Both the position numbers and the translations under genes were made by a program. A model generated the notes under the pieces. The model saw only the letters and a list, made by a program, of their open reading frames with translations, had not been told where the DNA came from and ran no database searches. A DNA stretch of 64,000 bases, from contig DAOUME010000022.1 in assembly GCA_034411995.1 (NCBI GenBank), positions 3,965-67,964 on the forward strand, in the 5' to 3' direction. This stretch comes from Anaerolineae bacterium (GTDB taxonomy: Bacteria; Chloroflexota; Anaerolineae; UBA7937; B3-Chlor). Each line of letters starts with the position of its first letter. Position 1 is the stretch's first letter. Below, one piece after another: positions 17,811 through 44,078 of the stretch.

Positions 17811-17842
17811 CGACCCGGCGGGTCGACCCTACTCTTACCATA
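17811..17842. repeat. REP-like GC-rich palindrome (GTAGGGGCGACCCG-GC-GGGTCGACCCTAC)
   Basis: Imperfect palindrome with GTAGGGG / CCCTAC arms in the secG-lepA divergent intergenic region; same family as the elements at 27315 and 44048. Confidence 0.6.
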
Positions 17843-17943
17843 CCCTCCAGCACCGTCTTTCAGTTTGGGGTCGATTCAAGTATAATGAATCGAAGCCAAC
17901 GTAAAGACACTACCAGTGCCCTGCGAGCACTCTCTCCCCGGCC

Positions 17944-19746
17944 ATGGACCAGGAAAGAATCAGGAACTTCTCCATCATCGCACACATCGATCACGGCAAG
18001 TCCACCCTGGCGGACCGCCTGCTGGAGTACACAGGCACTATCTCCCCCCGGGAGATGGCCGATCAGGTCCTGGACCAGATGGACCTGGAGCGCGAGAAGG
18101 GCGTGACCATCAAGTCCTCCGCCGTGCGCATGCGCTACCAGGCCGACGATGGCCAAGAGTACGAGCTCAACCTCATCGACACGCCGGGCCACGTGGACTT
18201 CACCTACGAGGTCTCCCGGGCCCTGGCGGCCTGCGAAGGCGCCGTCCTGGTGGTGGATGCCACCCAGGGGGTGGAAGCGCAGACTCTGGCCAACCTCTAC
18301 CTGGCCCTGGAGCACGATCTGGCCATCATCCCCGTGGCCAACAAGATCGACCTGGAAAGCGCCCGCCCGGAGGATGTGGCGCACGAGCTGGAAGAGCTGC
18401 TGGGCATCCCGGCGGAGCAGGTGCTGCGAACCTCGGCACGAGAAGGGATAGGGACCAAGGGTGTCCTGGAGGCCATCGTCAGGGCCGTCCCGCCGCCCCA
18501 GGGTCATTCTGAAGCCCCCCTGCGCGCTCTCATCTTCGACTCCCACTACGACCCGTACAAGGGCGTGGTGGCCTACGTGAGGATCGTGGACGGCCAGCTA
18601 AGGGGTCACCAGCGACTCGAGCTTATGTCAAACGAGCGGGCCTTCGAGCCTCTGGAGATCGGTGTCTTTACACCAGGAATGAGACCCACATCTGAGCTGG
18701 CCACCGCCGAAGTGGGATACATCGCCACCGGCCTCAAGAACGTCCGGGACTGCTCCGTGGGCGATACGATCACCACCGCCACAGACTCCGCCCAGGAGCC
18801 GCTCCCCGGATACCGGCCCATCAAGCCCATGGTCTTCGCCGGACTCTATCCCGCGGAAGCTGAAGACTATCACCTGTTGAGGGATGCCCTGGACAAGCTG
18901 CACCTCAACGATGCTTCGCTCTCCTACCAGCCAGAGGACTCCCAGGCTCTGGGCTTCGGCTTTCGCTGCGGGTTTCTGGGCCTCTTCCACATGGAGATCG
19001 TCCAGGAACGGTTGGAGAGGGAATACGGCCTCAGCCTCCTGGCCACGGCGCCCAGCGTGGAATACCACGTCCTGACCGGGGACGGCGAGCTGATCGAAGT
19101 CGACCGCCCCGCTGATCTGCCGGCACCGGTGGACATCGAGTCTATCGAGGAGCCGTGGGTCAAGATCAGCGTCTTCAGTCCCGAGGACTACATCGGCCCC
19201 ATCATGGAGCTGGTCACTTCCCGGCGCGGCGAGTACGAGTCCATGGAATACCTGGACCCTCAGCGGGTGCTGCTCACCTACCAGATGCCTTTGGGCGAGA
19301 TGATCGTGGAGTTCTACGACCAGCTCAAGTCTCGCACCAGGGGATACGCCTCTCTCGACTACGCCCTGTCTGGCTACCGGCCTGGGGACCTGGTCAGGCT
19401 CGACGTGCTGGTGAACAATCAGGCGGTGGATGCGTTGTCCCTGATCACCCACAGGGACCAGGCCTACGGCAAGGGCAGCTTGCTGGTCAAGAAGCTGAAG
19501 GAGGTGATCCCCCGGCAGTTGTTTCCCGTGCCGATTCAGGCCGCCGTGGGCAGCCACGTCATCGCTCGCGAGACGGTGAAGGCGCTGCGCAAGAACGTGC
19601 TGTCCAAGTGCTACGGCGGCGACGTGACCCGCAAACGGAAGCTGCTGGAGAAGCAGAAGGCCGGAAAGAAGAGAATGAAGAAGATCGGCCAGGTGAACAT
19701 CCCCCAGGAAGCGTTCATGGCCGTCTTGAACCTGTCGGAAGAGTAG
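17944..19746 (+). CDS. lepA: Elongation factor 4 (LepA)
   Basis: [35 protein letters not shown] GTPase motifs and the LepA C-terminal domain; 600 aa. Confidence 0.95.
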
Positions 19747-19764
19747 GAACAGCCAGAGCAGGCC

Positions 19765-21198
19765 ATGACCTCAGGCACCACCCGGCTGACCATCCTCCAT
19801 ACCAACGATCTGCACGGGCGCATCGAGCAACTGCCGTTCCTCAGCGCCATGGCCAGGGCCATCCGCAGGGAAGTGGCCAGCCAGGGGGGCCACGCGCTGC
19901 TCTGGGACGCGGGCGACGCAGAGGATCGTATCCTCCTGGAGAGCGACGTCACCAAGGGCGCGGCGATCGTGCCGCTGATGTCTGCCGTGGGCTACGACGC
20001 AGCGGCGGTCGGCAATTCCATCGGCGTCACCTACGGCCCCCAGAACCTGTCCCAGCTGGCGAAGATCGCCCCCTACCCGCTGATGGCCGCGAACCTGGCC
20101 TGGTCCGACACCGGCCAACTGGTAGAGGGGTTGGTGCCGTACAAGCTGTGGGACCTGGGCCCGGCCAGGCTGGGCGTGGTGGGGCTCACCGCTCCCTCCG
20201 TGGCCTACTCGTCGTTCGGCGCTCGCTGCTACGTCCCGGCGCCCCTGGTCACGGAGCTGACCCGTCACCTGCGGGAGCAGGGAGCCACCATCATCTCCAT
20301 CCTCTCGCACCTGGGGCTGGAGGATGACCGGGCGCTGGCCGAGTCAGTGGAAGGCATCGATCTCATCGTCGGTGGGCACTCGCACACCCTGCTAGAGGAG
20401 CCTCTGCTGGTCCAGGGGACGCTCATCACCCAGGCCGGCTCCTACGGACAGCACCTGGGTCAGATCGACCTGGAGGTAGACGACGCCTCTGGAAGGGTCT
20501 TGGAGCGACGGGCACAGGTGCTGCCGGTGGAGACGTCCCGAGCCGACGACGTGGTGGTGGAGGCCATCCAGGCGCAGGCGCAGGAGGTGCAGAAGCTGCT
20601 GGGTCGCGTCGTCGGTCAGACCGTGGCCTTCCTAGACGTGAACTACTTCCAGGAATGCGCCCTCGGCAACTTCCTGGCTGACGTATTACGAGCGCGCATG
20701 GGCACCGAACTGGCCTTCGTGGTCACCGGCATGCTGGACGAGGCCCTCAGGGAAGGCCCCATCACCTTCGGCGACCTGTGCAGAGCCACGTCCTCCACGG
20801 CCAACCCCGGCCGGGCTGAGCTGACCGGCGAGCAGATACTGGGCGCCCTGAACCACGGTCTCCGCCCTGAGGTGGCGCAGGACCGTCCATCTCCCATGCG
20901 CGGCAACCCCCAGGGGATCCTTCAGGTGTCGGGACTCACGGTCACCTACGACCCTTACGGCGACCCCCAGGAGCAGGTGGTGGCGGTTCTGGTAGGAAAG
21001 GAACCGCTGGACAGGAACCGTACCTACACTGTGGCCTCGACAGACTGGGAGCTGGGCCACCTCACCGCCTACGTCGACCTGGACCGGGACGACGTGAGAT
21101 ACGACGTACCGACGATTCTCCGCGAAGCGATGGAGGAGCATTTGCGTCAGCACTCTCCCATCTCCGTAGCAGTGGAGGGGAGAATGCAGCCCGTATGA
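19765..21198 (+). CDS. Bifunctional metallophosphatase / 5-prime-nucleotidase (UshA-like)
   Basis: LTILHTNDLHGR metallophosphoesterase motif, GNHE-like motif, C-terminal 5-nucleotidase domain. Confidence 0.8.
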   Translation: MTSGTTRLTILHTNDLHGRIEQLPFLSAMARAIRREVASQGGHALLWDAGDAEDRILLESDVTKGAAIVPLMSAVGYDAAAVGNSIGVTYGPQNLSQLAKIAPYPLMAANLAWSDTGQLVEGLVPYKLWDLGPARLGVVGLTAPSVAYSSFGARCYVPAPLVTELTRHLREQGATIISILSHLGLEDDRALAESVEGIDLIVGGHSHTLLEEPLLVQGTLITQAGSYGQHLGQIDLEVDDASGRVLERRAQVLPVETSRADDVVVEAIQAQAQEVQKLLGRVVGQTVAFLDVNYFQECALGNFLADVLRARMGTELAFVVTGMLDEALREGPITFGDLCRATSSTANPGRAELTGEQILGALNHGLRPEVAQDRPSPMRGNPQGILQVSGLTVTYDPYGDPQEQVVAVLVGKEPLDRNRTYTVASTDWELGHLTAYVDLDRDDVRYDVPTILREAMEEHLRQHSPISVAVEGRMQPV

Positions 21199-22373
21199 AA
21201 GCCAGAGCTCTTCCGGGGGGTTACAGCCCCACTTTCTACCTGGCCTTCCTGTCCTGCTTTCTCTTCTTCAGCAGTATTCACTTGCTGATCACACCGCTGC
21301 CCACCTACATCGAGGCCCTGGGAGGGGGCCCGGTCCACGTCGGGCTGGCCGGGACGACCTTCGCCCTGGCGGCCCTCGTCCTCCGCCCCTGGATGGGCCG
21401 CCTGGTGGACACTCGAGGGCGCAAGATAGCCCTGCTCATCGGAACGGCCGTCTTCACCGTAGGGCCTCTGTGCTACATTGTGACCACCACCCTGCCCGCC
21501 TTTCACCTGGCGCGGGTCTTCCACGGCATCGGCATCGCCGCGTTCACCAGTGCGTACTTTGCCCTCATCGCCGACGTCACGCCGCCCGCCCGCTGGGGTG
21601 AAGCCCTGGGACTGGCCGGCGTCGCCGCCTCTCTCTCCGTGATCATCGCCTCACCCGCAGGGACGGCGCTCCTCGAACACACCAGCCATCGACTGGTCTT
21701 CGTCGCCTCCAGCCTGACGGCACTGGCCAGCTTCGCCGTCGCCCTTTCCATCCACGAGTCCAGACGGGCGGTCGTCGCCTCCCAGAGCCTGGATTCCAGC
21801 CAAGAGGGCCTGCTCGACGTGATCAAGCTGCCTGGCGTGAGCGCACCGTCCATGGTCACTCTGGCCCTGGGGCTGAGCTACGGCGCGGTCTACTCCTTCC
21901 TGCCCCTCTTTGCCCGAGATCGCAACCTGGGCAACGTGGGGTTCTTCTTCACCGGCCTGAGCCTCTCCATGGTGGTCTCCCGATCCATGGGCGGACGGGT
22001 GTCGGACAGGCTGGGCCGCCTCCCTGTGATCCTGCCCATGGGTGGCCTCCTGGCCCTCAGCCTGGCGGGCCTCAACTGGACCTACGCCTTCGGCACGCTC
22101 ATGCTCATGGCCGTCTTTCATGGCTTGGGCTTCGGGGGCGCCCGGGTGGTCCTGGAGACCATGGTCGTGGACAGCGCACCGGCCAGGGTGAGAGGAAGGG
22201 CCTTGAGTATCGTGTACTTCTGTTTCGACACCGGCCTGGCCGCCAGCGGGCTGTTGTTGGGGCCGGTCATCGATCTGGCGGGATACGGGATGGCCTTCCT
22301 CTTGGTGGGTGGTGTCTGCGTCCTCGCTCTGATCCTCTTCGCGGCGGCCATGAGGCGGGCAGAGACCGCCTAG
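21195..22373 (+). CDS. MFS transporter
   Basis: 392 aa, 12 predicted TM helices, MFS motif GRLVDTRGRK between TM2 and TM3; start overlaps the upstream stop (ATGA). Confidence 0.8.
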   Translation: MKARALPGGYSPTFYLAFLSCFLFFSSIHLLITPLPTYIEALGGGPVHVGLAGTTFALAALVLRPWMGRLVDTRGRKIALLIGTAVFTVGPLCYIVTTTLPAFHLARVFHGIGIAAFTSAYFALIADVTPPARWGEALGLAGVAASLSVIIASPAGTALLEHTSHRLVFVASSLTALASFAVALSIHESRRAVVASQSLDSSQEGLLDVIKLPGVSAPSMVTLALGLSYGAVYSFLPLFARDRNLGNVGFFFTGLSLSMVVSRSMGGRVSDRLGRLPVILPMGGLLALSLAGLNWTYAFGTLMLMAVFHGLGFGGARVVLETMVVDSAPARVRGRALSIVYFCFDTGLAASGLLLGPVIDLAGYGMAFLLVGGVCVLALILFAAAMRRAETA

Positions 22374-22383
22374 TATCCCGAGC

Positions 22384-23502
22384 TCAGACAGGCCCCTGGT
22401 CGGCCACTTCCAGCAGGACCTCCAGCACCCTCCCTGCCGTCACCCCCCAATCGAAGGCCCGCAACCGGTCACGGCCCCGCCGCACCAGTTCGGAGCGTAG
22501 TGCTCGATCCATGATAACCCGCAACGTGGCCTGGGCTATCCCCTCCACGTCCAGGGGGTCGACCAGCAGCGCCGCCTCCCCCGCCACCTCGGCCAGGGCG
22601 GAAGTGTCCGAGGTCACCACGGGCACGCCGTACGCGGCGGCCTCCAGGATGGGGAAACCGAAGCCCTCGTACAGCGAGGGGAAGAGGAAAGCCTCGGCCC
22701 CGGCGAAGAGGCCGGCCTTCTCCCGGCCCACGTATCCGGTGAGCACCACGTCCACGCCGTGTGGTGAGGCGTTGATCAAGCGCGCCACCTCCTCGAACCC
22801 CACGCCGGGCGTGCCCCCCAGCACCAGTTGATGCGGCAGGCCGCGCTCTTTGAGCCTCAGGAAGGCCTGCACGATGCGCGCCACGTTCTTCTTCGTCTCC
22901 AACCGCCCCAGGAAGAGGAGGTACGGCGGGGTGATCTCGTACCGCTCCAACGTGGCGGCCACCTGGTCAGGTGTCGGCAGCTCCGCCTCGGTGACGGTCA
23001 ACCCGGAGAGGACGGCTTCGATGCGCGCCGGGTCAACACCGTAGATGCGCACCAGGTCGTCCTTCGTGGCCTGGGAGACAGCGATGATCTTCGCCGCCGT
23101 GCGCAGGGCGAAGCGGGTGGTGAGCTCCAGGTACCAGCGCGCCAGCGGCGAGTAACACTCCGGGAAGTAGTGAAAGGCCACGTCGTGGATGGTGGTCACG
23201 CAGCGCGGCGGACGCAGGAAGGGGATGACGTTGGCCGGAGCGAAGAACACGTCGGGCTTCAGCCGTCGCAGCTCCGTGGCCATCCGAGTCTGCGCCCACA
23301 GGGTGCGTCGCGGTATCTCGAGAGGGACGAAGTTGGAGGGCAGGTCCCCGAACTCCTCCGGCACCCTGTCGTTCAACAAGAGGGTGTACTGGTTGGTGGA
23401 GTCCAGCCGCGCCAGAGCCAGGATCAGGTGTAGCGTGTAGAACTCCGTGCCGGTCCGGCGTTTCTTGGCCGCCGGGGAAGCGTCGATGGCGATCCTCTTC
23501 AC
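22384..23502 (-). CDS. Family 4 (GT-B) glycosyltransferase
   Basis: C-terminal Glycos_transf_1 pattern (AFLFPSLYEGFGFPILEAAAYGVPVVTSD). The ORF was trimmed to the GTG at 23502 (RBS GGAGGG); the 114-aa Arg/Gly-rich N-terminal extension in the six-frame track looks spurious. Its GTG start overlaps the stop of the upstream methyltransferase (GTGA). Confidence 0.75.
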   Translation of the reverse strand: MKRIAIDASPAAKKRRTGTEFYTLHLILALARLDSTNQYTLLLNDRVPEEFGDLPSNFVPLEIPRRTLWAQTRMATELRRLKPDVFFAPANVIPFLRPPRCVTTIHDVAFHYFPECYSPLARWYLELTTRFALRTAAKIIAVSQATKDDLVRIYGVDPARIEAVLSGLTVTEAELPTPDQVAATLERYEITPPYLLFLGRLETKKNVARIVQAFLRLKERGLPHQLVLGGTPGVGFEEVARLINASPHGVDVVLTGYVGREKAGLFAGAEAFLFPSLYEGFGFPILEAAAYGVPVVTSDTSALAEVAGEAALLVDPLDVEGIAQATLRVIMDRALRSELVRRGRDRLRAFDWGVTAGRVLEVLLEVADQGPV

Positions 23503-24539
23503 CCTACGCCCTCCACCGGTTTCCGGGCCACGGCGGTGAGCCCGTACTCGACGAAGAGCAGCCCAGCCAGGTTGGCCCCCTGCGAACGGAGCATCCTCCG
23601 TGCCCACGCTCCCTTCCACATCCGTCTGGTGAGGGCGAAGAGCGAAGACTTCACCCTCCCCCCCTCTGGGGCTCCCTCCTCCCCGTCCAGCATGGCGCGC
23701 AGCGCCCCGGGGAGGTAGTAGCGGGGATTCAGCCCTGCGGCCCCGAAGGCCTGGCGGTAGTCGAGGATGGTATAGGCGTGCTCGTTGATGCCCGCCTCCG
23801 TCTCCTCGTTGTCCACGCGTTTGTCCTTGAGGATCCTGTAGCACGGCTCACTGGTCAGCGCCAGCCTCCCTCCCTCTCTCAGCACGCCAGCGCACTGTAT
23901 CACCACCTGACCCAGCATCGGGCTATGGTGGATGCTGGCCACGGAGAGCACCAGGTCGAAGGTCTCAGGACGAAAGGGCAGCTTCTCCATGCTGGCCAGG
24001 ACCCGCTCGAAGGGAGGGGTCCCCTGCCGCAGGTACACCTCCCCCGTCTCCAACCCTCCTGCCCGTCTGTCCCTCACCACGTCCAGGGCCACCACCTGGC
24101 ACCCCGCCCGCGCCAGAAAAGCGCTGGCCCAGCACCGTCCAGCCCCCAGCTCCAGCACCCGCTCTCCACCGCGCAGGTCCAGCAGTTCCATCAGGCCGAA
24201 GAAGTTGTCGCCCTGCCTCTTCCAGTGGGCTACGCTCTGGAGGTTGGAGGTGACGCCCTGGTGCACGCGGGGCAGGGACAGGATCCACTCCTCCCTCATC
24301 TCCTCGGCGCCGCCCTGAAGGAACCTCTCCCAGCCGGCCCGCTCCCGAAGGACCGCCTCGGGCGGGTGCGGAAGGAGGTCCAGGACACCGTGGCTGAGGG
24401 CGTAGCGAGCGCCGCAGGCCCCACACTCCAGCCAGCCCTCGGTGAGAACGTCTGGCTGTGCGCTGCGCAGGGCTTCCAGGTGCCAGTGGCCTTCCCCGCA
24501 GGCCGGGCAAACCAGCCAATCCAGTAGCTCCTCTCTCAT
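23499..24539 (-). CDS. Trm112-like zinc-ribbon domain fused to class I SAM-dependent methyltransferase
   Basis: N-terminal LDWLVCPACGEGH...CGACGARY (Trm112/DUF343-like double CxxC), then VLELGAGRCWASAFLARAG methyltransferase motif I. Confidence 0.7.
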   Translation of the reverse strand: MREELLDWLVCPACGEGHWHLEALRSAQPDVLTEGWLECGACGARYALSHGVLDLLPHPPEAVLRERAGWERFLQGGAEEMREEWILSLPRVHQGVTSNLQSVAHWKRQGDNFFGLMELLDLRGGERVLELGAGRCWASAFLARAGCQVVALDVVRDRRAGGLETGEVYLRQGTPPFERVLASMEKLPFRPETFDLVLSVASIHHSPMLGQVVIQCAGVLREGGRLALTSEPCYRILKDKRVDNEETEAGINEHAYTILDYRQAFGAAGLNPRYYLPGALRAMLDGEEGAPEGGRVKSSLFALTRRMWKGAWARRMLRSQGANLAGLLFVEYGLTAVARKPVEGVG

Positions 24540-24626
24540 GGTCAGCCTATCATATCAGCGCTATGGGGCAGAGTCAAGGCAAGGACGTTGGGGCGAGGCG
24601 GCCTTGCCCCCCTTCTTTGCCTCGTC

Positions 24627-24648
24627 GCCGCACGGCATGCCGTGCGGC
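24627..24648. repeat. Perfect 22-nt palindrome GCCGCACGGCATGCCGTGCGGC
   Basis: Shares the CACGGCATGCCGTG core with the palindrome at 27315..27342. Confidence 0.7.
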
Positions 24649-24710
24649 TACACCCAACGCGCGCGCTGCACACATCCTCCCACCTGCGAATCCCTTGCCC
24701 CCCGCAATCC

Positions 24711-24735
24711 GTAGGGCAAGCTTAAGCTTGCCTAG
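24711..24735. repeat. Imperfect palindrome GTAGGGCAAGCTTAAGCTTGCCTAG
   Basis: GGCAAGCTT/AAGCTTGCC inverted repeat with GTAGGG/CCTA flanks; REP-like family member. Confidence 0.6.
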
Positions 24736-24982
24736 CGCTGGATGCCTGATCCTGCGCGTGCCTTCCACGCTCCCATGTCGGCGCCAATACCTGTCCTGCC
24801 ACCCTCGCCCCACGTCGAGCTGAAGCTCGACGCTACATCAGCCCTAAACGCGCCACAGCGCGTTCCTCCCCCCCACCACCCCCTGCTGCACCCCGTCCCC
24901 TGCGTCACCAAGCAGGCATTCCCCATGCCCGGCGACTCGGCCTGCCCCCCCGCCCCTACCCCCGTTCCCAGCCGCACCTGAC

Positions 24983-25011
24983 GTGACACCTGTCACCAGA
25001 CATGGTACAAT
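24983..25011 (+). promoter_or_regulatory. Sigma70-like promoter (-35 GTGACA, 17 nt, -10 TACAAT) with overlapping palindromic operator GTGACAccTGTCAC
   Basis: GTGACAcctgtcaccagacatggTACAAT; the -35 hexamer is the left arm of a 6+2+6 perfect inverted repeat, suggestive of a repressor site. It sits about 45 nt upstream of a GGAGGAA RBS and the small ORF at 25054. Confidence 0.5.
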
Positions 25012-25053
25012 AGCCTGTGACCATCGCCGCTGCTCGAAACGGAGGAATAGCCC

Positions 25054-25299
25054 GTGAGCACGGAAGAAGACCTCATCCCCGAGGAAGCCATCGGGGGTGG
25101 TGGCGCGGCACGCGCCCCATCCCGGCCTCCCTGTGGCTCCGTGGTTCACCATTTCTACTCAAGCACACCGTTCGGCAGCGATGAACGAAGCGTTGGACTT
25201 CTCTGTGACGCCATAGGCCCCGGCTTCGGGGCGTTCGACGCCGTCCTGACCGGCTACTGCTACCCCTCACGGAGATCGCCAGCGAGGTGGTTACGGTGA
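25054..25299 (+). CDS. Small hypothetical protein (81 aa, acidic N-terminus, Gly run, 4 Cys), translationally coupled to the downstream membrane protein
   Basis: GTG start 6 nt after GGAGGAA; sequence MSTEEDLIPEEAIGGGG...CGSVVHHFYSS...LLCDAIGPGFGAFDAVLTGYCY; its stop TGA overlaps the GTG start of the next gene (GTGA). Coding status unproven. Confidence 0.3.
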   Translation: MSTEEDLIPEEAIGGGGAARAPSRPPCGSVVHHFYSSTPFGSDERSVGLLCDAIGPGFGAFDAVLTGYCYPSRRSPARWLR

Positions 25300-34691: not shown

Positions 34692-34770
34692 TCGACCAAG
34701 TGTGTTTGGTTTTGGTGTACAGTGTGCACTGACGCACAGCTGCTTCGGCCCAACAATGGCTTGACCCCAT

Positions 34771-34848
34771 GGGGAGATCGACACGTTGGTGTATCACTTG
34801 TATGGGTTGACGGAGGGAGAGATCGCTATCGTGGAGGGGCGATCGCTG
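34771..34848 (+). repeat. Direct repeat copy 4 of the RM-gene 3-prime end (about 78 bp), ends in TGA
   Basis: GGGGAGATCGACACGTTGGTGTATCACTTGTATGGGTTGACGGAGGGAGAGATCGCTATCGTGGAGGGGCGATCGCTGA. Confidence 0.85.
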
Positions 34849-35029
34849 AACGCGCTGCGCGGACCGGCTACCCCGAAACAGAGTTCGGTGATCTCTCGGG
34901 GCTCGGATGTGGCATGGTGATGGGGACCAACGTTGGGCCACTGCGCCAGTTGAGGTGACTGGGTGGAAAGATGTCCGCATAATCATTAGTTAGCACGCTT
35001 CACGCCGCTGACGCTCGGGAAGGAAAACC

Positions 35030-36085: not shown

Positions 36086-36259
36086 TACCTAGTCACGCAG
36101 TCCATCCCGAGAAGAGCGTGGTAACAGGTCGCTGGCGGCGACAGCCCCTGTCGGTGCCAGGCTGCGTGTGGAGCGACGACTCGGCGATACTCCAGGCTAG
36201 CGGAAGAGCGTCGACGAGAAGACTCAGGCACGCGAAATGACCTATCGCTTCTACGAGAA

Positions 36260-36460
36260 TTGTGCGTGCGACCCAAGAAGGCGAAGATACATTTCTCCAA
36301 TTGCAGGTCCTGCAACTACGGATTAGGAAAAAACAAGCACAAGGTGGAAGGGCTTCACGGGAGATGGCACGGCCCATTCTCGACGTTCGAGGAGGCATGG
36401 GACGCAGCACAACACACCGGCAAGAAGCCGACCACCTGCGGCCACTGCAGACCTCGGTGA
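36260..36460 (+). CDS. Possible small zinc-ribbon protein (two CxxC pairs)
   Basis: SNCRSC...TCGHC in 66 aa. TTG start and no clear RBS, so low confidence. Confidence 0.2.
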   Translation: MCVRPKKAKIHFSNCRSCNYGLGKNKHKVEGLHGRWHGPFSTFEEAWDAAQHTGKKPTTCGHCRPR

Positions 36461-36574
36461 GAGGGGCGGCGCTGCGCCTTGTGCGCTTGCGCGCCGCTGG
36501 TCCAGCTCTACCCAAGCAGACCGCTCTGCCATGGAGGGGTCAATCACCCAGGCACCCAGCGACACCTTCGTAGA

Positions 36575-36593
36575 GGCGGGTCTGAGACCCGCC
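36575..36593. repeat. Palindrome GGCGGGTCTGAGACCCGCC (member of the GGGTCTSAGACCCGCCC repeat family)
   Basis: Perfect 9+1+9 palindrome followed by CGCAAG, the same tail as the copy at 46635. Confidence 0.6.
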
Positions 36594-36734
36594 CGCAAGC
36601 GGCCTCCCGATTCGTCATGGTCGTTCGCACAAACCTCGGCCGGTGCGCCGGTTTGGAGCACCACGCGCGACGCTGTCGGCCAGGCAGCTCGGATCAAAGA
36701 GCTCCATAGTCACGAGTGAGGGACTAGCAACGTC

Positions 36735-37478
36735 ATGAGCATTCGTTTACTCGATTGCGCGCCGATGGCTCCCCGGTACCCACGGTGGCACCTGGGGACT
36801 CCCTGTCTGCTCGTCGACACCGACCAGGGCCTCGTTCTCGTCGATACCGGCCTCGGCCTGCACGACTTTCTGGCCCCAGGGCCCCTGGTCCGCCTCTTCG
36901 CGTGGGCTTTGCGCTTCCCTCACGATCCCGAGCACGCCGCCGTGCGCCAGCTCTCGCGCCTGGGCCACGACCCCGAATCTGTCCGGCACATCGTGATGAC
37001 CCACCTCCATTTCGACCACGCCGGGGGCCTTCCCGACTTCCCCCACGCTCAGGTTCACGTACACCGCCGCGAGTACGAGGCCATGCTCCATCCTCGCAGT
37101 CTGCTAGAGCTGGGCTACGATGGCCTCGATTTCGCCCATGGGCCCTCCTGGGTTCTCTACGACCAACCCACCGAGGACTGGCTCGGGTTCGAGGCTTTCC
37201 GGCTGCCCTTCACGCCGGAGATGTATCTCGTCCCACTCTTCGGCCACACCCGCGGCCATTGCGGGGTAGCCATCCAGGACGATGATGGTTGGGTCTTGCA
37301 GTGTGCCGACGCCCTGCCCACGAATGCTGACTTCGACCTCACCCCGCCATGGCTCAACCGTTTGGTGATCGGACCGCACGTTGCCAGGTTGCGGGAGTGG
37401 GCTTGCCGCCATCCCGAAGTTCGCCTGTTGGCCGGGCACATGCGGCACCCTTTCCCCGATCACAAGGGCGAAGTCTGA
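36735..37478 (+). CDS. MBL-fold metallo-hydrolase
   Basis: HxHxDH motif (MTHLHFDHAGG) and downstream His/Asp ligands (GHTRGH). Confidence 0.8.
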   Translation: MSIRLLDCAPMAPRYPRWHLGTPCLLVDTDQGLVLVDTGLGLHDFLAPGPLVRLFAWALRFPHDPEHAAVRQLSRLGHDPESVRHIVMTHLHFDHAGGLPDFPHAQVHVHRREYEAMLHPRSLLELGYDGLDFAHGPSWVLYDQPTEDWLGFEAFRLPFTPEMYLVPLFGHTRGHCGVAIQDDDGWVLQCADALPTNADFDLTPPWLNRLVIGPHVARLREWACRHPEVRLLAGHMRHPFPDHKGEV

Positions 37479-37505
37479 GAGTCCCCGGCCGAAGCGGACC
37501 CGACT

Positions 37506-37544
37506 GGAGAAGAGATCGCTATCGTCGAGGGCCGGAATTGCTGA
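37506..37544 (+). repeat. Direct repeat copy 5 of the RM-gene 3-prime end (about 39 bp), ends in TGA
   Basis: GGAGAAGAGATCGCTATCGTCGAGGGCCGGAATTGCTGA. Confidence 0.8.
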
Positions 37545-37836
37545 ACCGCTGAGGCCAGCTTCGCAAGGCCAGGCCTGACACCCGCCCCTACCAACCCCCC
37601 AGCCCTGCGTGCGGCGGGCCTTTCTTTGCCCAACACAGACTCGCGAAAGAACCTGAGCTCAGCATACACTTGCGGCAGCTAGCCCTTCTGGCGCCACTGA
37701 GTGCCGCCCGGACACAGCCCATTGGCGAGGACAAACGTGCGCCTGAGGCGCCAGATGGCTTGACGGCGCCGAACGATATCCCCATAATCACTAGTTGGGA
37801 GGACACAACAGGAGGGAATATGAAAGAGCGCGAATC

Positions 37837-38832
37837 AGTATGGGAAGATTGAGAGTCGGCTTGCTGAACAAGAAACGGGGCAACTTTGCACTCGAAGAAA
37901 GGTTCATAGGCCCCGATGGCGTCGTTGATAGGACGAACGCCGAAGCAGAACATCACCAGCGGGCCCTGACCGAAGCCGGTTACGTTGTCCGCCAGATTCG
38001 CTGGGGCCCTGATTTCATCAACGATCTACAGGCTTCCCCAGTCGATCTTGTGTTCAACGTTTCCAGTCTGGTAGAAGCCGCGATCCTCGAAGAATTGCAG
38101 ATACCCTACGTGGGCTCCGATACGTTCACCATCGCCATCGCCACCGACAAATCGCTGGCGAAAAGGCTCTGGCAGCAGGCGGGCCTGCCGACATCGCCTT
38201 TCTGGCTGGCCAGATCGCAGAAGGACTGTGGCCTGTTTGGGGGCATCCCACCCTTCGAGTATCCCCTGTTCGTCAAGCCGGTGGCCGGCCGAGGCAGCGC
38301 AGGGATCGACGACACGTCCATCGTTCACAGCTACGACCAACTGGTCAGCGCAGTTGTGGAAAGGCTGGAGACTATCGGTCAACCAGTCCTCATAGAGAAG
38401 CTGCTGCGGGGCAGAGAAATCACCCTGGGCGTCCTGGGAAATGAGCGCGCAAGGGCCCTTCCTCCATTAGAGATCGCGTATTGCGAGGGGGATGACACAC
38501 TGACTTTCGAGAAGAAAGAGTTGGACAACGATACCTTCCTCTGCCCTGCTCCGCTGACCGCTGAAGAGACCCACACCATGCAGCAATTGGCGCTTCGGGC
38601 CTACCACGTGTTGGGCTTCAGGGACTTTGGCCGAATTGACACGATCTTGACCGACGAAGGGCCGTGCTTGTTGGAGGGGAACACTTTCGCGGGGCTCATG
38701 TGCACACCCAAGGAGAAACCTCGTAGCTATATTGGCTTCATGGCTCGCGCAGAGGGAAAGGACGGCAAGGCTCTGCTGGATGAGATCATGCAGATAGCTA
38801 TCAGGAGACTCAACTTGAAAGCCTGTGATTGA
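37837..38832 (+). CDS. ATP-grasp enzyme of the D-alanine--D-alanine ligase family
   Basis: Ddl-like N-terminal and ATP-grasp patterns (LRVGLLNKKRG..., EYPLFVKPVAGRGSAGI, ITLGVLG). The ORF was trimmed to the ATG at 37837. Confidence 0.7.
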   Translation, partial: SMGRLRVGLLNKKRGNFALEERFIGPDGVVDRTNAEAEHHQRALTEAGYVVRQIRWGPDFINDLQASPVDLVFNVSSLVEAAILEELQIPYVGSDTFTIAIATDKSLAKRLWQQAGLPTSPFWLARSQKDCGLFGGIPPFEYPLFVKPVAGRGSAGIDDTSIVHSYDQLVSAVVERLETIGQPVLIEKLLRGREITLGVLGNERARALPPLEIAYCEGDDTLTFEKKELDNDTFLCPAPLTAEETHTMQQLALRAYHVLGFRDFGRIDTILTDEGPCLLEGNTFAGLMCTPKEKPRSYIGFMARAEGKDGKALLDEIMQIAIRRLNLKACD

Positions 38833-39436
38833 GATGTCAGTACCTCGGATAGAGATAGAACTCGACAAACTGAGCCATAACGCCCGCAAGCTGATAGCTC
38901 TATACGGTTCCAAGCGAATCCACATCGTGGCTGTCACGAAGGGGCTCTGTGGCTCTCCCAGGATTGCGAATCCTCTGCTCAAGAGCGGATTCCGCTGCTT
39001 CGGCGACTCACGCACCCCCAACGTACGAGAGCTGCGCGAGGGTGGCATAGATGCGCAATTCACCTTCATCCGCTCCCCCATGCCCAGCCGGGTCGAGCGA
39101 GTGCTCGAATCTGACGACGTAAGTCTCGATACAAAGATCGCCGTTATGCAGCTTCTTGCCGATGAGGCCACCAGATGTGGCAGAAGCCATCGAGTCAGTC
39201 TGATGGTTGGGCTGGCCTATCTACGGGAGGGCATACTACCCTCCGATCTCGAGCCGGTGGTGAAGGGGATCATTGGCATGCAAGGCATGGATCCACTTGT
39301 CTCCGGCAGGCTGCGGGACGATAATCTGCTGGGCTGGGGTAGTGCCCGCCCGTGGGAGGAAAGGGCAGGCCCAGCGTGCTCATCCGCGTGGATCGGCGGA
39401 AGGGTCGCGCCTGATTCTCTCCCTGAGCAGCGATGA
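38825..39436 (+). pseudogene. Alanine-racemase-like N-terminal (PLP-binding barrel) fragment, apparently truncated or frameshifted
   Basis: LIALYGSKRIHIVAVTKGLCGS resembles the alanine racemase N-terminal domain. Only about 200 aa are present, the C-terminal 60 aa look like out-of-frame read-through, and the ORF overlaps the downstream ADH start. Confidence 0.35.
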
Positions 39437-39483
39437 CCTTCGAGCAGTCGAACCGGCGCGGTTCGGAAAGGAGGGCTACACCA

Positions 39484-40512
39484 ATGTCTGCTTCAACCAT
39501 ACTGGGATACGCCGCGAGGGCGGTGGGACAACCGCTCGAGCCCTTCACCTACGAGCCGCCGCCGTTGGACGAACACGACGTGCGGGTTTCTGTCACTCAC
39601 TGCGGCGTCTGCCACACCGACGTCCACGCCATCGACGACTACTACGGAATCACCACCTATCCCTTCGCGCCCGGTCACGAGATCGTGGGCTACGTCTCGG
39701 ATGTGGGCCCGGCAGCGTCCGGCCTGAAGGAAGGGGACAGGGTGGGCATAGGCTGGCAGGGCCGTTCTTGCGGGCAGTGTGAGTGGTGCTTGAAGGGAGA
39801 AGAGCAACTGTGTATGGACATCGTCCAGGCGGCAACCTGGCTCCCCTACGGAGGGTTCTCCTCCTCCGTCGTCGTGGACAGCCGCTTCGCCTACGGGCTC
39901 CCTGACGGTATGCCCTCGGAGATAGCCTCGGTGCTCATGTGCGCCGGGATCACCGTCTACTCTCCCCTCCGCTCCTTCGCCGCGCCACCCTCGCAGAAAC
40001 TCGGCATCGTCGGCGTGGGAGGGCTGGGCCATCTCGCCCTACAGTTCGCCCGCGCCTTCGGCTACGAGGTCACCGCCATTTCCTCGTCCCCAGAGAAGAA
40101 GGAGCAGGCGCTGGCCTTCGGCGCAGACCACTTCGTCGTCTCGGACCAGGCCAGCCTGTCCGAGCTCGAGTTCACCTTCGACCTGCTGCTATGCACCGCC
40201 AGCGGCAAGATCGACTGGGTGCCGCTGCTGGACACTCTGAAGAAGAACGGCAAGATGATCCTCGTCGGCTTCCCCGACGTGGAGCTCAATTCGACCGACC
40301 TGGTGGCGCACCAACTCTCCATCCTCACGTCCTTCCTGGGCAACCGGGCGCGAATGCGGGAGATGCTGTCGTTCGCGCAGGCCCACGGCATTACCCCCGC
40401 CATCGAGCAAATGCCCATGTCGGAGGTCAACGAAGCCCTTCAGAGAGTGAGAGACAACCAGGCCCGCTACCGCATCGTGCTCGTCAACGAGACGGAGAGC
40501 ACAGGGGCCTAG
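39484..40512 (+). CDS. Zinc-dependent alcohol dehydrogenase (MDR family)
   Basis: CGVCHTDVH, GHEIVGYV, a structural-zinc Cys cluster (CGQCEWCLKGEEQLC) and GxGxxG (GIVGVGGLGH); ATG at 39484 with GGAGGG RBS. Confidence 0.85.
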   Translation: MSASTILGYAARAVGQPLEPFTYEPPPLDEHDVRVSVTHCGVCHTDVHAIDDYYGITTYPFAPGHEIVGYVSDVGPAASGLKEGDRVGIGWQGRSCGQCEWCLKGEEQLCMDIVQAATWLPYGGFSSSVVVDSRFAYGLPDGMPSEIASVLMCAGITVYSPLRSFAAPPSQKLGIVGVGGLGHLALQFARAFGYEVTAISSSPEKKEQALAFGADHFVVSDQASLSELEFTFDLLLCTASGKIDWVPLLDTLKKNGKMILVGFPDVELNSTDLVAHQLSILTSFLGNRARMREMLSFAQAHGITPAIEQMPMSEVNEALQRVRDNQARYRIVLVNETESTGA

Positions 40513-40590
40513 TCCCCCCTTCCCTCACGGGTGATCTGGTCCAGCCAGACTCGCACCATTACTGCTCAGACTACGGCACAGGAGGCCACC

Positions 40591-41823
40591 ATGGATTACG
40601 ACTTCGACGCCGAGGTCGACCGCCGAGGCACCGACTCTCTGAAATGGGAGTTCATACAGAGCGACGAAGATCCGCTGAAGTGGGAGCTCACCGATTCTTT
40701 CTTCGGAGAAGACCGTACCCTCCCCTTGTGGGTGGCGGACATGGACTTCCCCTGTCCCCAGCCGGTAGTGGATGCGCTGGTGGCCAGGGCCCAGCACGGG
40801 ATCTACGGCTACACCATGCCCTCTCCCGCCTTCTATCGATCCGTCGTCGGCTGGATGCGGAGACGGCACGGGTGGGAGATAGCGCCCGAATGGATCTGTA
40901 TCACCCCTGGGGTCGTGCCGGCCGTCAACATGCTGGTCCGCGCCTTCGTCGCCCCTGGCGACAAAGTACTGATCCAGCCCCCGGTCTACTATCCTTTCTA
41001 CTCCGCCATCGAGAACAACGGCGCCGAGCTGGCCCTCAACCCCCTGATCTACGAGGACGGTCGCTATCGCATGGACCTGGCGGACCTGGAGGCCAAATGC
41101 CAGGATCCTCAGGTCAAGCTGGCCATCCTGTGCAGTCCGCACAACCCCGTGGGGCGCGTGTGGACCCCGGAGGAGCTCCGCCGCTTTGGGGAGATCTGTA
41201 TCGACAACGACGTGCTCGTCGTCTCTGACGAGATCCACGCCGACCTGATCTTCAAAGGTCACGTGTTTACGCCCTTCGCCAAGGTCAGCGAACCCTTCGC
41301 CCAGCATTCCGTCACCTGCACCGCGCCCAGCAAGACCTTCAACCTGGCCGGGTTGCAGACCTCTTGTATCGTCATCCCCAATCACGATCTGCGCTCCGTC
41401 TTCGATAGAATCGTGCAGAGCAACGGGCTGGTCACCGTCGGCACCTTCGGCGCGGTTGCCCTTCAGGCCGCGTACGATCTTGGAGAGGAATGGCTGGGGC
41501 AGCTTCTCGACTATCTCCAGGGGAACCTCGAATACCTCGAGCAGTACGTGGCGGAGCAGATCCCGCAACTATCCGTGGTGCGACCAGAGGGGACCTACCT
41601 GGTCTGGCTCGACTGTCGCCGGCTTGGGCTCAGCAAGTGGGGGCTAAAGCAACTCATGCTGGAGGAGGCGAGAGTCTATCTCGACGAGGGTTTCGTGTTC
41701 GGCCCCCAGGGTGAGGGCTTCGAACGTCTCAACATCGCTTGCCCCCGAGGAGTCCTGGCTGAGGCGCTCGATCGAATCAGGCAGGCCGTGGAAAGCCTGC
41801 CGGCCGGACCGATGTCCGCGTAG
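40591..41823 (+). CDS. PLP-dependent C-S lyase / aminotransferase class I-II (MalY/PatB-like)
   Basis: GTDSLKWE N-terminus, PLP-Lys region (SPHNPVGRVW...S.SKTFNLAGL). Start set at MDYDFDAEVD. Confidence 0.75.
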   Translation: MDYDFDAEVDRRGTDSLKWEFIQSDEDPLKWELTDSFFGEDRTLPLWVADMDFPCPQPVVDALVARAQHGIYGYTMPSPAFYRSVVGWMRRRHGWEIAPEWICITPGVVPAVNMLVRAFVAPGDKVLIQPPVYYPFYSAIENNGAELALNPLIYEDGRYRMDLADLEAKCQDPQVKLAILCSPHNPVGRVWTPEELRRFGEICIDNDVLVVSDEIHADLIFKGHVFTPFAKVSEPFAQHSVTCTAPSKTFNLAGLQTSCIVIPNHDLRSVFDRIVQSNGLVTVGTFGAVALQAAYDLGEEWLGQLLDYLQGNLEYLEQYVAEQIPQLSVVRPEGTYLVWLDCRRLGLSKWGLKQLMLEEARVYLDEGFVFGPQGEGFERLNIACPRGVLAEALDRIRQAVESLPAGPMSA

Positions 41824-41881
41824 CCGGTCGCTGAGCAGCCCCACGCCGTGCTCGTCACATCTCCCAGAGGGTTACAGGAAG

Positions 41882-42886
41882 ATGAACGAAGAGGACCAAC
41901 CTGCTTGGGTGAATCCGCGTCTCGTGCGGCCGCACGGCTGGTCACCCATACTGCACGTCGACCTGGAAAAGATGACAGACCAGCAGAGGCAGACGTTTGC
42001 CCTTCATCGCCTCTCCGGTTTCACGGCTGCGGGTTACCCTGCAGAGAGGTGCTACCATTTCTACACCAACAAGCAAGCTGAGTCCTTCTCGCTGCCCACC
42101 TACGTGTGGACACCCTGGAGCAGAGACTCAACCGCGTTGGAACCCGCGAAGATCGAATCGGTGCAGGAAATGCTGCCGTACGTCGCGGATGAGGAAATTG
42201 TCCATGTCTGTCGTTCTCTCATCGAACAGGGACAACTGCTGGACCACACCAGCGAGCAACTGGGCCGGGCACTCGCCGACTTCCTTGGCCTACCCTCCCC
42301 AGAAACCGACCGGCATTCCGAGCAACTGTGGCGACGAGCGAACGAGTATCGCGCGAAGCACGGCCCGGCCTGGGCAAGTCAGGCACAGATCAGGCCACTG
42401 GTCGCCCAGTTGAAGGACGTCTTCGTGGAGCTGAGTTCGTCGCAGTTTGAGCTTCACGGCAGGCTCCGACCCTATTACGAGCGCCTGGCCCCAGGTGGCG
42501 CGGAGATGGGCGATCAACGAGCCGACGACCTGGTCAACCAGGCCATGGAAGAGCCCGACGCCGATCGTGCCATACGCCTGCTCGAGAGAGCCTTACGATA
42601 CGGCAAGACCGGTATCCCGGCCAGCAGGGCCTACGTGGAACTTGCCGGACGCTACTCAGACCGGGGGGAGACCAAGAGAGCCATCGCCTACTACACCAAG
42701 TCCATCGAAGCCTCCAAGATTCCTAACGCCTACGCTCTCTACTGGCGGGGAGAGCTATACTATCAGCAAGAGGAGTGGGACAAGGCGCTCGGCGATTTCG
42801 AACGGGCGGTGTCCATAGGGCTTTTCTCGCCCGAGTGCGAGCAGGCGCAAGAGTATCTAGCCGAGCTGCGTGGCCGTCAGCCCTAG
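41882..42886 (+). CDS. Hypothetical protein with C-terminal TPR repeats
   Basis: ATG at 41882; C-terminal AIAYYTKSIEA..AYALYWRGELYYQQEEWDKALGDFERAV are TPR-like. Confidence 0.5.
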   Translation: MNEEDQPAWVNPRLVRPHGWSPILHVDLEKMTDQQRQTFALHRLSGFTAAGYPAERCYHFYTNKQAESFSLPTYVWTPWSRDSTALEPAKIESVQEMLPYVADEEIVHVCRSLIEQGQLLDHTSEQLGRALADFLGLPSPETDRHSEQLWRRANEYRAKHGPAWASQAQIRPLVAQLKDVFVELSSSQFELHGRLRPYYERLAPGGAEMGDQRADDLVNQAMEEPDADRAIRLLERALRYGKTGIPASRAYVELAGRYSDRGETKRAIAYYTKSIEASKIPNAYALYWRGELYYQQEEWDKALGDFERAVSIGLFSPECEQAQEYLAELRGRQP

Positions 42887-42897
42887 CGATGACCCGT

Positions 42898-42959
42898 GGG
42901 GGTGGGTCTCAGACCCGCCCCTACGCAGGTGCCCTTGCTACGTGGGGTGATCTCACCCC
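42898..42959. repeat. Dispersed about 50-60 bp repeat (GGGGGTGGGTCTCAGACCCGCCCCTACGCAGGTGCC..TTGCTACGTGG) containing two hairpins
   Basis: About 90% identical to 45063..45110; the core palindrome GGGTCTSAGACCC also occurs at 36575 and 46635. Confidence 0.7.
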
Positions 42960-43066
42960 CGCATACCGTCCGGGCCTGAACAGACATGTCGGCATAGCCA
43001 GTAATCAGCCGCCCCGTCGTGGTACTCACGGTCCCGCTTCGTGGGCAAGGGTAGAGCGGAGGGAGA

Positions 43067-43882
43067 GTGATGACCAAGAAAGGCGAGGACAGTCGCAAAC
43101 CGCTTGGCACCCGCGAATGGTACGATTTCGTTGGTCAACTCGCAGACGCGCTGCCAGGGATGCACCTGGGAGGACAGGAAGCTACGCAGAAACTGCTGGA
43201 GATGTGCGATCTGGAAGCGACGAGCCGCGTTCTCGATGTGGGCTGCGGTGGCGGGAACACAGCCTGCTTCATCGCCGAGCAGTACGGTTCGTCTGTCCGA
43301 GGGATAGACATATCCGAGGTCATGATCGACAAGTCCAAAGAGAGGGCGCGCCGACAGGGACTGGAGGACAAAGTCGAGTTCCGGGTTGCCGACGCGGCCG
43401 AGCTACCCTTCGAGGATGACTCATTTGACGTGGTCATCGTTGAGTCCGTCTTGACGCCGATACCTGGCGACAAGAGCAAGGCGCTTGGGGAGATGGTCAG
43501 GGTTGCGCGTGCCGGAGGGCGGATTGGGGCCAATGAATCCACTGTGGATCCGTCGGCGCCGGAAGAGTGGCTGGCTCTCCTGGACGAGCACCCGGCCATA
43601 CATGGGTACTTCACGCCGCAGACGCTCCGCAGCCTGTTCGAAGAATCCGGGCTGCAAGTGGTGGAGATGATCGAGGCTCAATACGTGGATACCCCGAAGG
43701 CGCTCAAGGACATGGGCCTACGCGCGGTGTTCTCCTTCATGCTCAGGGCCTATCCAAAGATCCTGCTCCGGCTGCTGCGCGACGCACGGATCAGGGAAGC
43801 CAGCAGGGTCGATGGCCAAATGACGAAGCGGGGCAAGGAGTACATGGGCTACACCTTGATCGTTGGGCAGAAACCTGGATAG
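43067..43882 (+). CDS. Class I SAM-dependent methyltransferase (UbiE/COQ5-like)
   Basis: VLDVGCGGGNTACFIAEQYG motif I and DVVIVESVL post-I motif. Confidence 0.75.
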   Translation: MMTKKGEDSRKPLGTREWYDFVGQLADALPGMHLGGQEATQKLLEMCDLEATSRVLDVGCGGGNTACFIAEQYGSSVRGIDISEVMIDKSKERARRQGLEDKVEFRVADAAELPFEDDSFDVVIVESVLTPIPGDKSKALGEMVRVARAGGRIGANESTVDPSAPEEWLALLDEHPAIHGYFTPQTLRSLFEESGLQVVEMIEAQYVDTPKALKDMGLRAVFSFMLRAYPKILLRLLRDARIREASRVDGQMTKRGKEYMGYTLIVGQKPG

Positions 43883-43993
43883 CGACCGCGGCCACGTCGT
43901 AGAAAGTGCAGCGCAAAACGGCAGGTGTCGAATGGATTGTGTTCATAGGGGCGACGGCCCATAAGGCGCTACAGGGCCAGACTCGGGCCACCG

Positions 43994-44030
43994 CTGGAGA
44001 GATCGCTACGGTGGAGGGGCGGGACCGCTG
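43994..44030 (+). repeat. Direct repeat copy 6 of the RM-gene 3-prime end (about 37 bp), ends in TGA
   Basis: GGAGAGATCGCTACGGTGGAGGGGCGGGACCGCTGA. Confidence 0.75.
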
Positions 44031-44047
44031 AGAACAGCGAGGGCGCA

Positions 44048-44078
44048 CTGTAGGGGCGAGTCGGCGACTCGCCCCTAC
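44048..44078. repeat. REP-like palindrome CTGTAGGGGCGAGTCGGCGACTCGCCCCTAC
   Basis: 13-bp perfect arms with GTAGGGG/CCCCTAC ends, located directly after direct-repeat copy 6. Confidence 0.7.

Follow-up and report, generated by a model that had tools for sequence, protein, structure and literature searches.

Here we report that the G+C-rich palindromes scattered through a 64,000-nucleotide chromosomal stretch of an uncultured Anaerolineae bacterium (hereafter the window) are most likely GTAG-tagged repetitive extragenic palindromes (REPs) of the "canonical long" and "double-foot" types. As such they would be the partner sequences of subclass 2.4 REP-associated tyrosine transposases (RAYTs, or TnpA-REP), HuH-Y1 endonucleases of single-stranded DNA (ssDNA), a reading to which we assign a probability of about 0.8. 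The window holds at least ten hairpin palindromes that start with GTAG or GTGG, together with three to five decayed remnants, all of them intergenic and between 17.8 and 45.1 kb. An earlier interpretation of the window made from its letters alone (the sequence-only reading) had called them REP-like and pointed to a possible REP-associated transposase; the label was right, and the transposase link proved to be the key to their identification.

In the classification of Quentin, Siguier, Chandler and Fichant (2018, BMC Genomics 19:475, PMC6006769), TnpA-REP subclass 2.4 corresponds to Bertels group 4 and comprises enzymes of median length 194 aa that have NH[IFV]H, WQ and YIxNNP motifs and, from HuH to Y, an insertion that varies; they are found in Cyanobacteria, Bacteroidetes and "various phyla". 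Their REPs are either "canonical long", with three G-C pairs at the stem base, or "double foot", with 5' GT[AG]G and 3' C[TC]AC, and the latter could derive from a REP doublet through deletion of its centre (PMC6006769). A GTAG-tagged REP superfamily of 24 families, including ones from Chloroflexi, Cyanobacteria and Planctomycetes, was described by Di Nocera et al. (2013, BMC Genomics 14:522, PMC3733652). Since the types of Quentin et al. were already described, the window elements would belong to a known class of REP.

A non-random family of tagged hairpins

We applied the REP rule from the Methods of Quentin et al. (PMC6006769), namely GTAG or GTGG 0–2 nt 5' of a hairpin with a fully paired basal stem of 7–20 nt, a loop of 2–5 nt and at least three G/C among the first four stem bases, and took random expectations from sequences of equal first-order composition. 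Perfect stems of at least 7 bp gave 10 strand matches in the window against 1.5 expected, and stems of at least 9 bp with at most one mismatch gave 14 strand matches, corresponding to 10 loci, against 1.8 expected; REP-rule elements thus occur at about eight times chance frequency. The pattern GTAGGG-N6-30-CCCTAC was found 3 times against 0.10 expected, a count reached in 0 of 100 shuffles of the window. The hexamer GTAGGG/CCCTAC alone showed no over-representation in the window, and 19 of its 31 occurrences fall in the 17.7% outside confident genes. All 10 loci of the relaxed rule are intergenic. Seven of these ten clear loci also pass with perfect stems, while 17804, 42896 and 45060 need one mismatch or G-T pair; an eighth perfect-stem match, at 17294, lies inside a gene and is probably due to chance. 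The sequence-only reading had made its proposal depend on the motif exceeding chance and avoiding coding regions, and within the window both hold: the palindrome family is real and non-random.

The elements of the window are listed below, with the strand where one applies. The remnants at 24586–24612, 24931–24959 and 37562–37591 come from reading all GTAGGG/CCCTAC sites and from comparison with two close relatives, L122 and L123.

17804–17832: double-foot REP GTAGGGGCGACCCGGCGGGTCGACCCTAC; 14-nt arms with one G/A mismatch and one central base; -13.7 kcal/mol, z -5.5; between the divergent secG and lepA promoters.
24586–24612: decayed remnant CGTTGGGGCGAGGCGGCCTTGCCCCC; weak fold, z -1.4; aligns to an intact GTAGGGGCGAGTCGGCGACTCGCCCCTAC in L122 and L123.
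24624–24651, minus strand: REP GTCGCCGCACGGCATGCCGTGCGGCTAC; GTAG intact on the minus strand, plus-strand tag now GTCG; centre CACGGCATGCCGTG common to 27314; the L123 version is GTAGGCGCACGGCATGCCATGCGGCTAC, with both feet intact.
24711–24735, plus strand: REP with GTAG, of the GGCAAGCTT/AAGCTTGCC subfamily; the L123 version is double-foot.
24813–24836, minus strand: REP GTAGCGTCGAGCTTCAGCTCGACG (read on the minus strand); z -4.8.
24931–24959: tentative remnant of a REP 3' half, GGCGACTCG...CGCCCCTAC, from direct reading of the letters.
27259–27280, plus strand: REP with GTAG followed by GGCAAACT-TC-AGTTTGCC; 125 nt 3' of a membrane-protein gene.
27314–27341: perfect 28-bp double-foot REP GTAGGGGCACGGCATGCCGTGCCCCTAC; -15.7 kcal/mol.
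36570–36593, plus strand: REP of the GGCGGGTCT-G-AGACCCGCC subfamily.
37562–37591: decayed remnant whose end is CCCGCCCCTAC; 21 nt past a remnant of the 3' end of a restriction-modification gene.
42896–42924: double-foot REP with GTGG on the plus strand, GTAG on the minus strand and one G-T pair; 10 nt past the stop codon of a TPR gene.
44050–44078: perfect double-foot REP GTAGGGGCGAGTCGGCGACTCGCCCCTAC; 14-nt arms and one central base; -17.2 kcal/mol, z -6.3.
45060–45088, minus strand: REP with GTAG on the minus strand only.

Every palindrome named in the sequence-only reading exists, with coordinates slightly shifted. The first lies at 17804–17832 and has one mismatch (it had been placed at 17811–17842), the perfect 28-mer begins and ends one base earlier than the 27315–27342 given, and the element reported as 44048–44078 with 13-bp arms is 44050–44078 with 14-nt arms. 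Two further members become 27259–27280 and 24624–24651, and 24711–24735 stands unchanged. The common centre of 24624 and 27314 was correctly recognised, as CACGGCATGCCGTG occurs exactly twice in the window, at 24631 and 27321. That list was incomplete: the elements at 24813–24836 (minus), 36570–36593 (plus), 42896–42924 and 45060–45088 (minus) were absent from it, the last lying just beyond the span considered.

The GT[AG]G tag is present on at least one strand in all 10 clear loci and on both strands in 4, and the double-foot form (GT[AG]G at both ends) is that of 17804, 27314, 42896 and 44050. Several elements are palindromic through the centre, leaving an effective loop of 3–4 nt, and the ssDNA folds of intact copies range from -6.4 to -17.2 kcal/mol (z -2.2 to -6.3). 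Between 24.6 and 24.85 kb the copies form a cluster of alternating orientation (minus, plus, minus) that resembles a bacterial interspersed mosaic element (BIME). Stem differences within subfamilies are compensatory in the pairs 24711/27259, 17804/44050 and 24624/27314, with a single A-T to G-C change separating 24711 from 27259. The sets of exchanged stem segments are AAACTT/AGTTT versus AAGCTT/AAGCTT, GACCCG/CGGGTC versus GAGTCG/CGACTC, and GGGGCACGG.../...CCGTGCCCC versus GCCGCACGG.../...CCGTGCGGC. Because these differences are compensatory, it is the hairpin that is conserved and not the sequence of its stem.

A 48-nt direct repeat (92% identical), at 42898–42945 and 45062–45109, consists of a REP with about 25 nt of flank and brackets a methyltransferase gene, REP 44050 and a DUF1801 gene.

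The same palindromes occur in dozens of phyla

We scanned one genome per species, 596 Gb in total, for the pattern GTAGGGGC-N6-20-GCCCCTAC and recovered at least 120 loci from dozens of phyla. The matches listed include Cyanobacteria, Chloroflexota, Acidobacteriota, Bacillota, Bacteroidota, Desulfobacterota, Planctomycetota, Patescibacteria, Atribacterota, Omnitrophota, Bipolaricaulota and many more. For 16 fixed bases in 596 Gb we estimate a chance expectation on the order of 2,000 matches; the matches are nevertheless not chance, because 111 of the 128 listed measure 28–29 nt and in 103 the centre is palindromic, with dozens of sequences represented. In the GTAGGGGC-N12-GCCCCTAC 28-mers the centres co-vary freely, and identical 28-mers recur in unrelated phyla.

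Among the palindromes listed, 62% are intergenic, compared with 12.7% non-coding sequence by the same crude gene caller. They lie between convergent genes in 26 cases and between divergent genes in 11, an association with 3' ends that the sequence-only reading had proposed to look for. Clustering of the open reading frames (ORFs) beside 126 palindromes revealed no common family; histidine kinases, response regulators, ABC ATPases and short-chain dehydrogenases formed the largest clusters and represent background. In IMG/VR the 28-mers also occur on viral-classed contigs (at least 120 loci, L208 onward), where genuine palindromes make up 44 of 125 pattern matches and the others appear chance-like; no RAYT gene was found in the 120 IMG/VR loci. 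Text searches of the literature for GTAGGGGC, GTAGGGGCG and CGCCCCTAC returned primers and unrelated papers only.

In a Desulfacinum metagenome-assembled genome (MAG; L105) a 133-nt intergenic repeat with the 28-mer at its centre is present in two copies (2596–2728 and 6423–6555), inverted and 85% complementary. Standing 3.8 kb apart, they resembled a composite transposon, but the DNA between them holds ruvA, yebC, rlmE and an inositol monophosphatase gene, and we therefore read them as copies of an intergenic repeat and reject a mobile element. In an Atribacterota MAG (L092) an IS200-type TnpA gene (1647–2090; E 2e-23 to IS608 TnpA) lies 450 nt from a G+C-rich 28-mer (2544–2571) in an A+T-rich region, a proximity that may be coincidental.

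RAYT genes carry the palindrome in frame

Searching all six-frame ORFs of the loci with E. coli TnpA-REP (identical to PDB 4ER8) picked out two of them, L049 and L029, which encode RAYT-like proteins. In both, the palindrome lies in frame inside the RAYT-like gene, directly after the HuH motif (...PNHMHGIIEIADGRGTMHRAPTVEQ... in L049; ...PNHIHGVLIIVG...DRRGVLQYAPTTVG... in L029), and in L029 the same 28-mer recurs twice ahead of the gene, at distances of 26 nt and 1.8 kb. The two proteins match NCBIfam NF047646 ("REP-associated tyrosine transposase") with E 1.6e-19 for L049 and 2.9e-16 for L029, both scoring below the equivalog cut-off (70 bits against 80 for the former), and they match a profile from our own RAYT alignment (A3) with E 8e-95 and 1e-67, respectively. 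The consensus of this alignment, ...MPNHxHGII...VWQRNYYEH...YIxNNP, and its lengths of 175–220 aa fit the motifs of subclass 2.4. E. coli TnpA-REP itself had no Pfam match at E 0.001, and Pfam alone would therefore miss the link to RAYTs.

The RAYT family is huge: 7,978 homologues at E≤1e-10 were found among 8,000 candidates scored, many of them annotated as RayT or REP-associated tyrosine transposase. An RG-x4/5-APT or VGA-x4/5-PL peptide after HuH is retained in 87 of the 120 best homologues, and nearly all the others have a split, duplicated or decayed version of it. The inner residues of this peptide co-vary as a palindrome demands, pairing T(ACG) with R(CGT), M(ATG) with H(CAT), L(TTG) with Q(CAA), A(GCG) with R(CGC) and V(GTA) with Y(TAC).

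We examined 80 further metagenomic RAYT loci: in 60 of them a REP obeying the rule lies within the gene, some 270 nt from its start, and 41 have a REP within 1 kb of the gene, often of identical sequence. The exact 28-mer of the window, GTAGGGGCACGGCATGCCGTGCCCCTAC, occurs at -76, inside, and at +61 of the RAYT gene in one of them (L139) and inside the gene in two more (L149 and L172); close variants of the window copy at 17804 are present in L155 and L168. REPtrons, in which the same REP flanks a subclass 2.4 gene and lies in frame within it, are thus found in other genomes.

The region of the gene that holds the palindrome is itself hypervariable. The REP-coded peptide after HuH is often partly tandem-duplicated, for example as GRDTMHCKDTMRCKGTMHRAPT, in P0012–P0020, P0033, P0041, P0058, P0079, P0080 and others. 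Some homologues repeat the whole segment up to FGKPTSNTIPTI two or three times, and others have an insert that interrupts the palindrome (RRGTMPRA...GTLQRAPT).

Turnover in close relatives

Syntenic loci were compared in L122 and L123 (LepA 96% identity) and in the more distant L127 (LepA 88% identity). The secG-lepA spacer contains an intact REP in the window and a degenerate one, with a 6-nt indel, in the 96% relative; the 88% relative has none there. The reverse holds in front of the methyltransferase gene, where GTAGGGGCGAGTCGGCGACTCGCCCCTAC is intact in the 96% relative and only the remnant at 24586 survives in the window; this 29-mer of L122 and L123 is identical to the window copy at 44050, which sits 20 kb away. 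The counterparts of 24624 and 24711 in the 96% relative are both double-foot, and those of the window have lost one foot. No convincing REP was detected in the 21.8-kb locus of L127. Such decay and replacement at the same sites is the fast turnover expected of REPs.

The contigs of L122 (end 16729) and L123 (end 11128) terminate within, or immediately past, the REP cluster that precedes the methyltransferase gene, the outcome to be expected if REPs interrupt short-read assembly. An assembly or adapter artefact was rejected as the source of the palindromes, given that their flanks are genome-specific, isolate genomes carry them and orthologous copies diverge between relatives.

Proposed mechanism and comparison with known systems

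In vitro, RAYTs of E. coli, Stenotrophomonas and Marinomonas need GTAG for cleavage and are sensitive to the perfection of the stem, and GTAG may guide the choice of cleavage site (PMC8266576). By analogy with these systems we infer the following sequence of events. When the DNA becomes single-stranded, for example at a replication fork, each strand would form a hairpin whose foot carries GTAG. A RAYT whose gene lies in another part of the genome would bind the hairpin, cut beside it and rejoin the ends. Its action would spread, amplify or reshuffle the copies, and only intergenic landings would survive. A double-foot copy presents the same tagged hairpin on both strands and is, in this respect, the smallest counterpart of a doublet of inverted REPs. 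For those copies that happen to be transcribed, effects on transcription or on mRNA 3' ends would be incidental.

The window elements share with subclass 2.4 REPs the 5' GT[AG]G at the hairpin foot, the basal G-C pairs and, in double-foot copies, the 3' C[TC]AC, as well as intergenic position, multiple copies (in the window, ten within 27 kb) and a wide, patchy spread over phyla. They differ in that published descriptions stress Cyanobacteria and Bacteroidetes, whereas the host here is an uncultured Anaerolineae MAG with several stem subfamilies within 27 kb. Compared by description with the superfamily of Di Nocera et al. (for example GTAG-23 of Thermomicrobium roseum, Chloroflexi), they have the same GTAG tag, 6–13 bp stems and short loops, together with complementary subfamily changes, alternating dimers or clusters and intergenic position. 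In most of those families, however, GTAG is unpaired and at one end, whereas many window elements are symmetric, with GTAG paired to CTAC.

With the REPs and BIMEs of E. coli (enzyme YafM, PDB 4ER8, subclass 2.2) the window elements share a GTAG guide tetranucleotide 5' of a G+C-rich hairpin, and the E. coli enzyme, a HuH-Y1 protein acting on ssDNA, is homologous by sequence match to the L049 and L029 proteins. In contrast to the perfect or near-perfect and often symmetric window elements, E. coli REPs are imperfect and have a bulge that the enzyme requires (PMC8266576). The E. coli RAYT gene also lacks an inserted REP, unlike the subclass 2.4 loci found here. REPINs of Pseudomonas are likewise symmetric units with a tagged hairpin on both strands, though each comprises two REPs and a spacer over about 100 nt, whereas a double-foot REP is a single palindrome of 28–29 bp. 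Bertels and Rainey are said to have proposed in 2011 that the REPIN is the unit mobilised by a single-copy RAYT.

Several points weigh against assigning the window palindromes to a RAYT system. Searches with E. coli RAYT, IS608 TnpA and our family profile brought up no RAYT gene (best profile match E 0.56), whether in the 64 kb of the window, in some 17 kb of additional flanking sequence of this genome or in the relatives' syntenic loci. The partner enzyme in this genome is therefore assumed, in contrast to the REPtrons described for subclass 2.4, and the RAYT association that the sequence-only reading had suggested is seen in other genomes and not in the window or its flank. All copies lie in one 27-kb sector, and none was found in the other ~54 kb of the same genome examined; the number of copies in the whole genome may thus be modest, and this sector gives no basis for extrapolating it. 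What was seen between relatives is decay and replacement, not transposition itself. Finally, the mechanism is borrowed from RAYTs of other subclasses and not from subclass 2.4 biochemistry.

Alternative explanations

The palindromes might instead be primarily intrinsic terminators or 3' mRNA-stabilising hairpins selected for that role, as the sequence-only reading had suggested. E. coli REPs do stabilise upstream mRNA, as noted in PMC6006769. The window hairpins are G+C-rich, like those of Rho-independent terminators, and stable in ssDNA folds, and six copies (27259, 27314, 36570, 42896, 44050 and 45060) lie downstream of co-directional genes; the excess of convergent over divergent gene pairs in the pan-bacterial sample points in the same direction. 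However, no T-run, and hence no U-tract, follows any intact copy, and a terminator scan flags only the decayed remnant (24590–24610). A terminator role also leaves unexplained the GTAG/CTAC feet, the palindromy through the loop and the identical in-frame copies inside RAYT genes.

Position argues against it as well, since divergent promoters enclose about half of the copies. Both 17804 and the group of four or five units at 24586–24959 are situated between divergent genes (secG/lepA and methyltransferase/membrane protein, respectively) with outward promoter-like sites, and for that reason are probably untranscribed. The sigma-70-type promoter-like site before secG (17750–17779, minus strand) matches TTGACA-18-TATAAT at 12 of 12 positions and has a TG; REP 17804 lies just upstream of its -35 box. 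We therefore regard a general role in termination or mRNA stability as unlikely. The six copies beside co-directional genes could, by analogy with E. coli, affect 3' ends as a side effect.

The sequence-only reading had further proposed that the palindromes serve as recombination or insertion landmarks, and an array of cassettes at 30–44 kb gives this some appeal. An Eco57I/MmeI-like type IIG restriction-modification gene (27647–30679) precedes the array, and its 3' end (the last 17–43 codons, ...EIDALVYELYGLTEEEIAIVEGR) is present in six copies or remnants within 30544–44027:

30544–30679
31676–31811
33531–33603
34769–34845
37502–37540
43989–44027

These copies delimit unrelated blocks of genes, encoding a HEPN protein, Pfam-less ORFs, a metallo-beta-lactamase-fold protein and a cluster of Ddl, alanine racemase, ADH and aminotransferase. 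About 20 nt past three to four of the six, at the same offset, lies a GTAG, a REP or a REP remnant (31831, 37562 and 44050). The array looks as though insertions or replacements had occurred repeatedly where the restriction-modification gene ends. In its simplest reading, a gene end and its REP were duplicated together as an ancestral unit, after which the REPs decayed; any causal role of the REP would be speculative.

That REPs, or a RAYT acting on them, mark where defence and metabolic cassettes joined the end of the type IIG gene is a long shot; if true, REPs would be landmarks for island growth and not passive passengers. A related reading holds that the palindromes are att- or attC-like sites that delimit the cassettes and built the array. 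The REP or remnant at a constant offset from the junctions, the 48-nt REP-and-flank repeat bracketing two genes, the REP clusters flanking the membrane-protein gene and a drop in G+C to 0.55–0.59 at 30–36 kb all speak for it. Yet no integrase, recombinase or RAYT was found in the array, where the ORFs at 30.7–36.1 kb have no Pfam match; the repeated unit is a gene 3' end, with which the REP was perhaps merely copied before decaying; and housekeeping spacers distant from the array, secG/lepA among them, contain REPs too. The window proteins that were scanned include no integrase or recombinase domain, and the palindromes are perfect, with GTAG feet, and to our knowledge bear no resemblance to attC core sites. 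The junction association is thus suggestive only, and we consider att-like sites very improbable.

Operators for a dimeric DNA-binding regulator would account for palindromes that are perfect through the centre and sometimes placed in divergent promoter regions, and can nearly be dismissed: centres differ while pairing is kept, which indicates conservation of structure and not sequence, the neighbouring genes are unrelated in dozens of phyla, many copies lie 3' of genes, and others are in frame inside RAYT genes. A dif/Xer-like 28-bp site (11+6+11) was dropped in view of the many copies, the variable arms and the lack of resemblance to dif.

Genomic context of the window

The window is a stretch of bacterial chromosome of about 62% G+C. 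It encodes housekeeping functions, including an SBP_bac_5 solute-binding protein, SecG, LepA, 5'-nucleotidase, an MFS transporter and glycosyltransferases, alongside the restriction-modification gene, the HEPN protein and others. The nearest named relatives of its LepA are from Anaerolineae MAGs, at about 85% identity, and a Logan contig of run SRR14802573 is identical to positions 15698–29062. A tRNA-Leu (CAG) gene at 15660–15744 (minus strand) is the sole Rfam/ARAGORN match; at the gathering threshold Rfam found only this tRNA in the whole window, leaving the palindromes unmatched.

Other repeats accompany the tagged palindromes. A second type of hairpin (CGCAGCGAAGAATCT / AGATTCTTTGCTTCG) is located at 27372–27408, 30 nt past REP 27314. 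In other phyla, the flanks of 28-mers are enriched in GTCATTCC / GTCATTGC ... GGAATC-type hairpins (seen in L014, L018, L025 and L092), and TCATTCC occurs in 11 of 260 flanks against 1.6 expected. Hairpins of the 27372–27408 kind may constitute a companion repeat family. Outside the GTAG family, a perfect 26-bp palindrome ACAGCCCCCGCGATCGCGGGGGCTGT with a HIP1-like core, GCGATCGC, lies between convergent genes at 58502–58527.

Implications

The palindromes of this uncultured Chloroflexota genome most likely represent an element kind that has already been described, and should not be annotated as terminators, operators or att sites. Recognising them has practical value, as these 28–29-bp palindromes break short-read assemblies, generate spurious small ORFs with peptides like RGxxxxAPT or VGAxxxxPL, and offer a quick marker for the presence of subclass 2.4 RAYTs. 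That a RAYT gene carries its own target palindrome in frame is reproduced here on thousands of metagenomic homologues, and the REP type is very widespread in uncultured lineages, for example Patescibacteria, Atribacterota, Omnitrophota and Bipolaricaulota.

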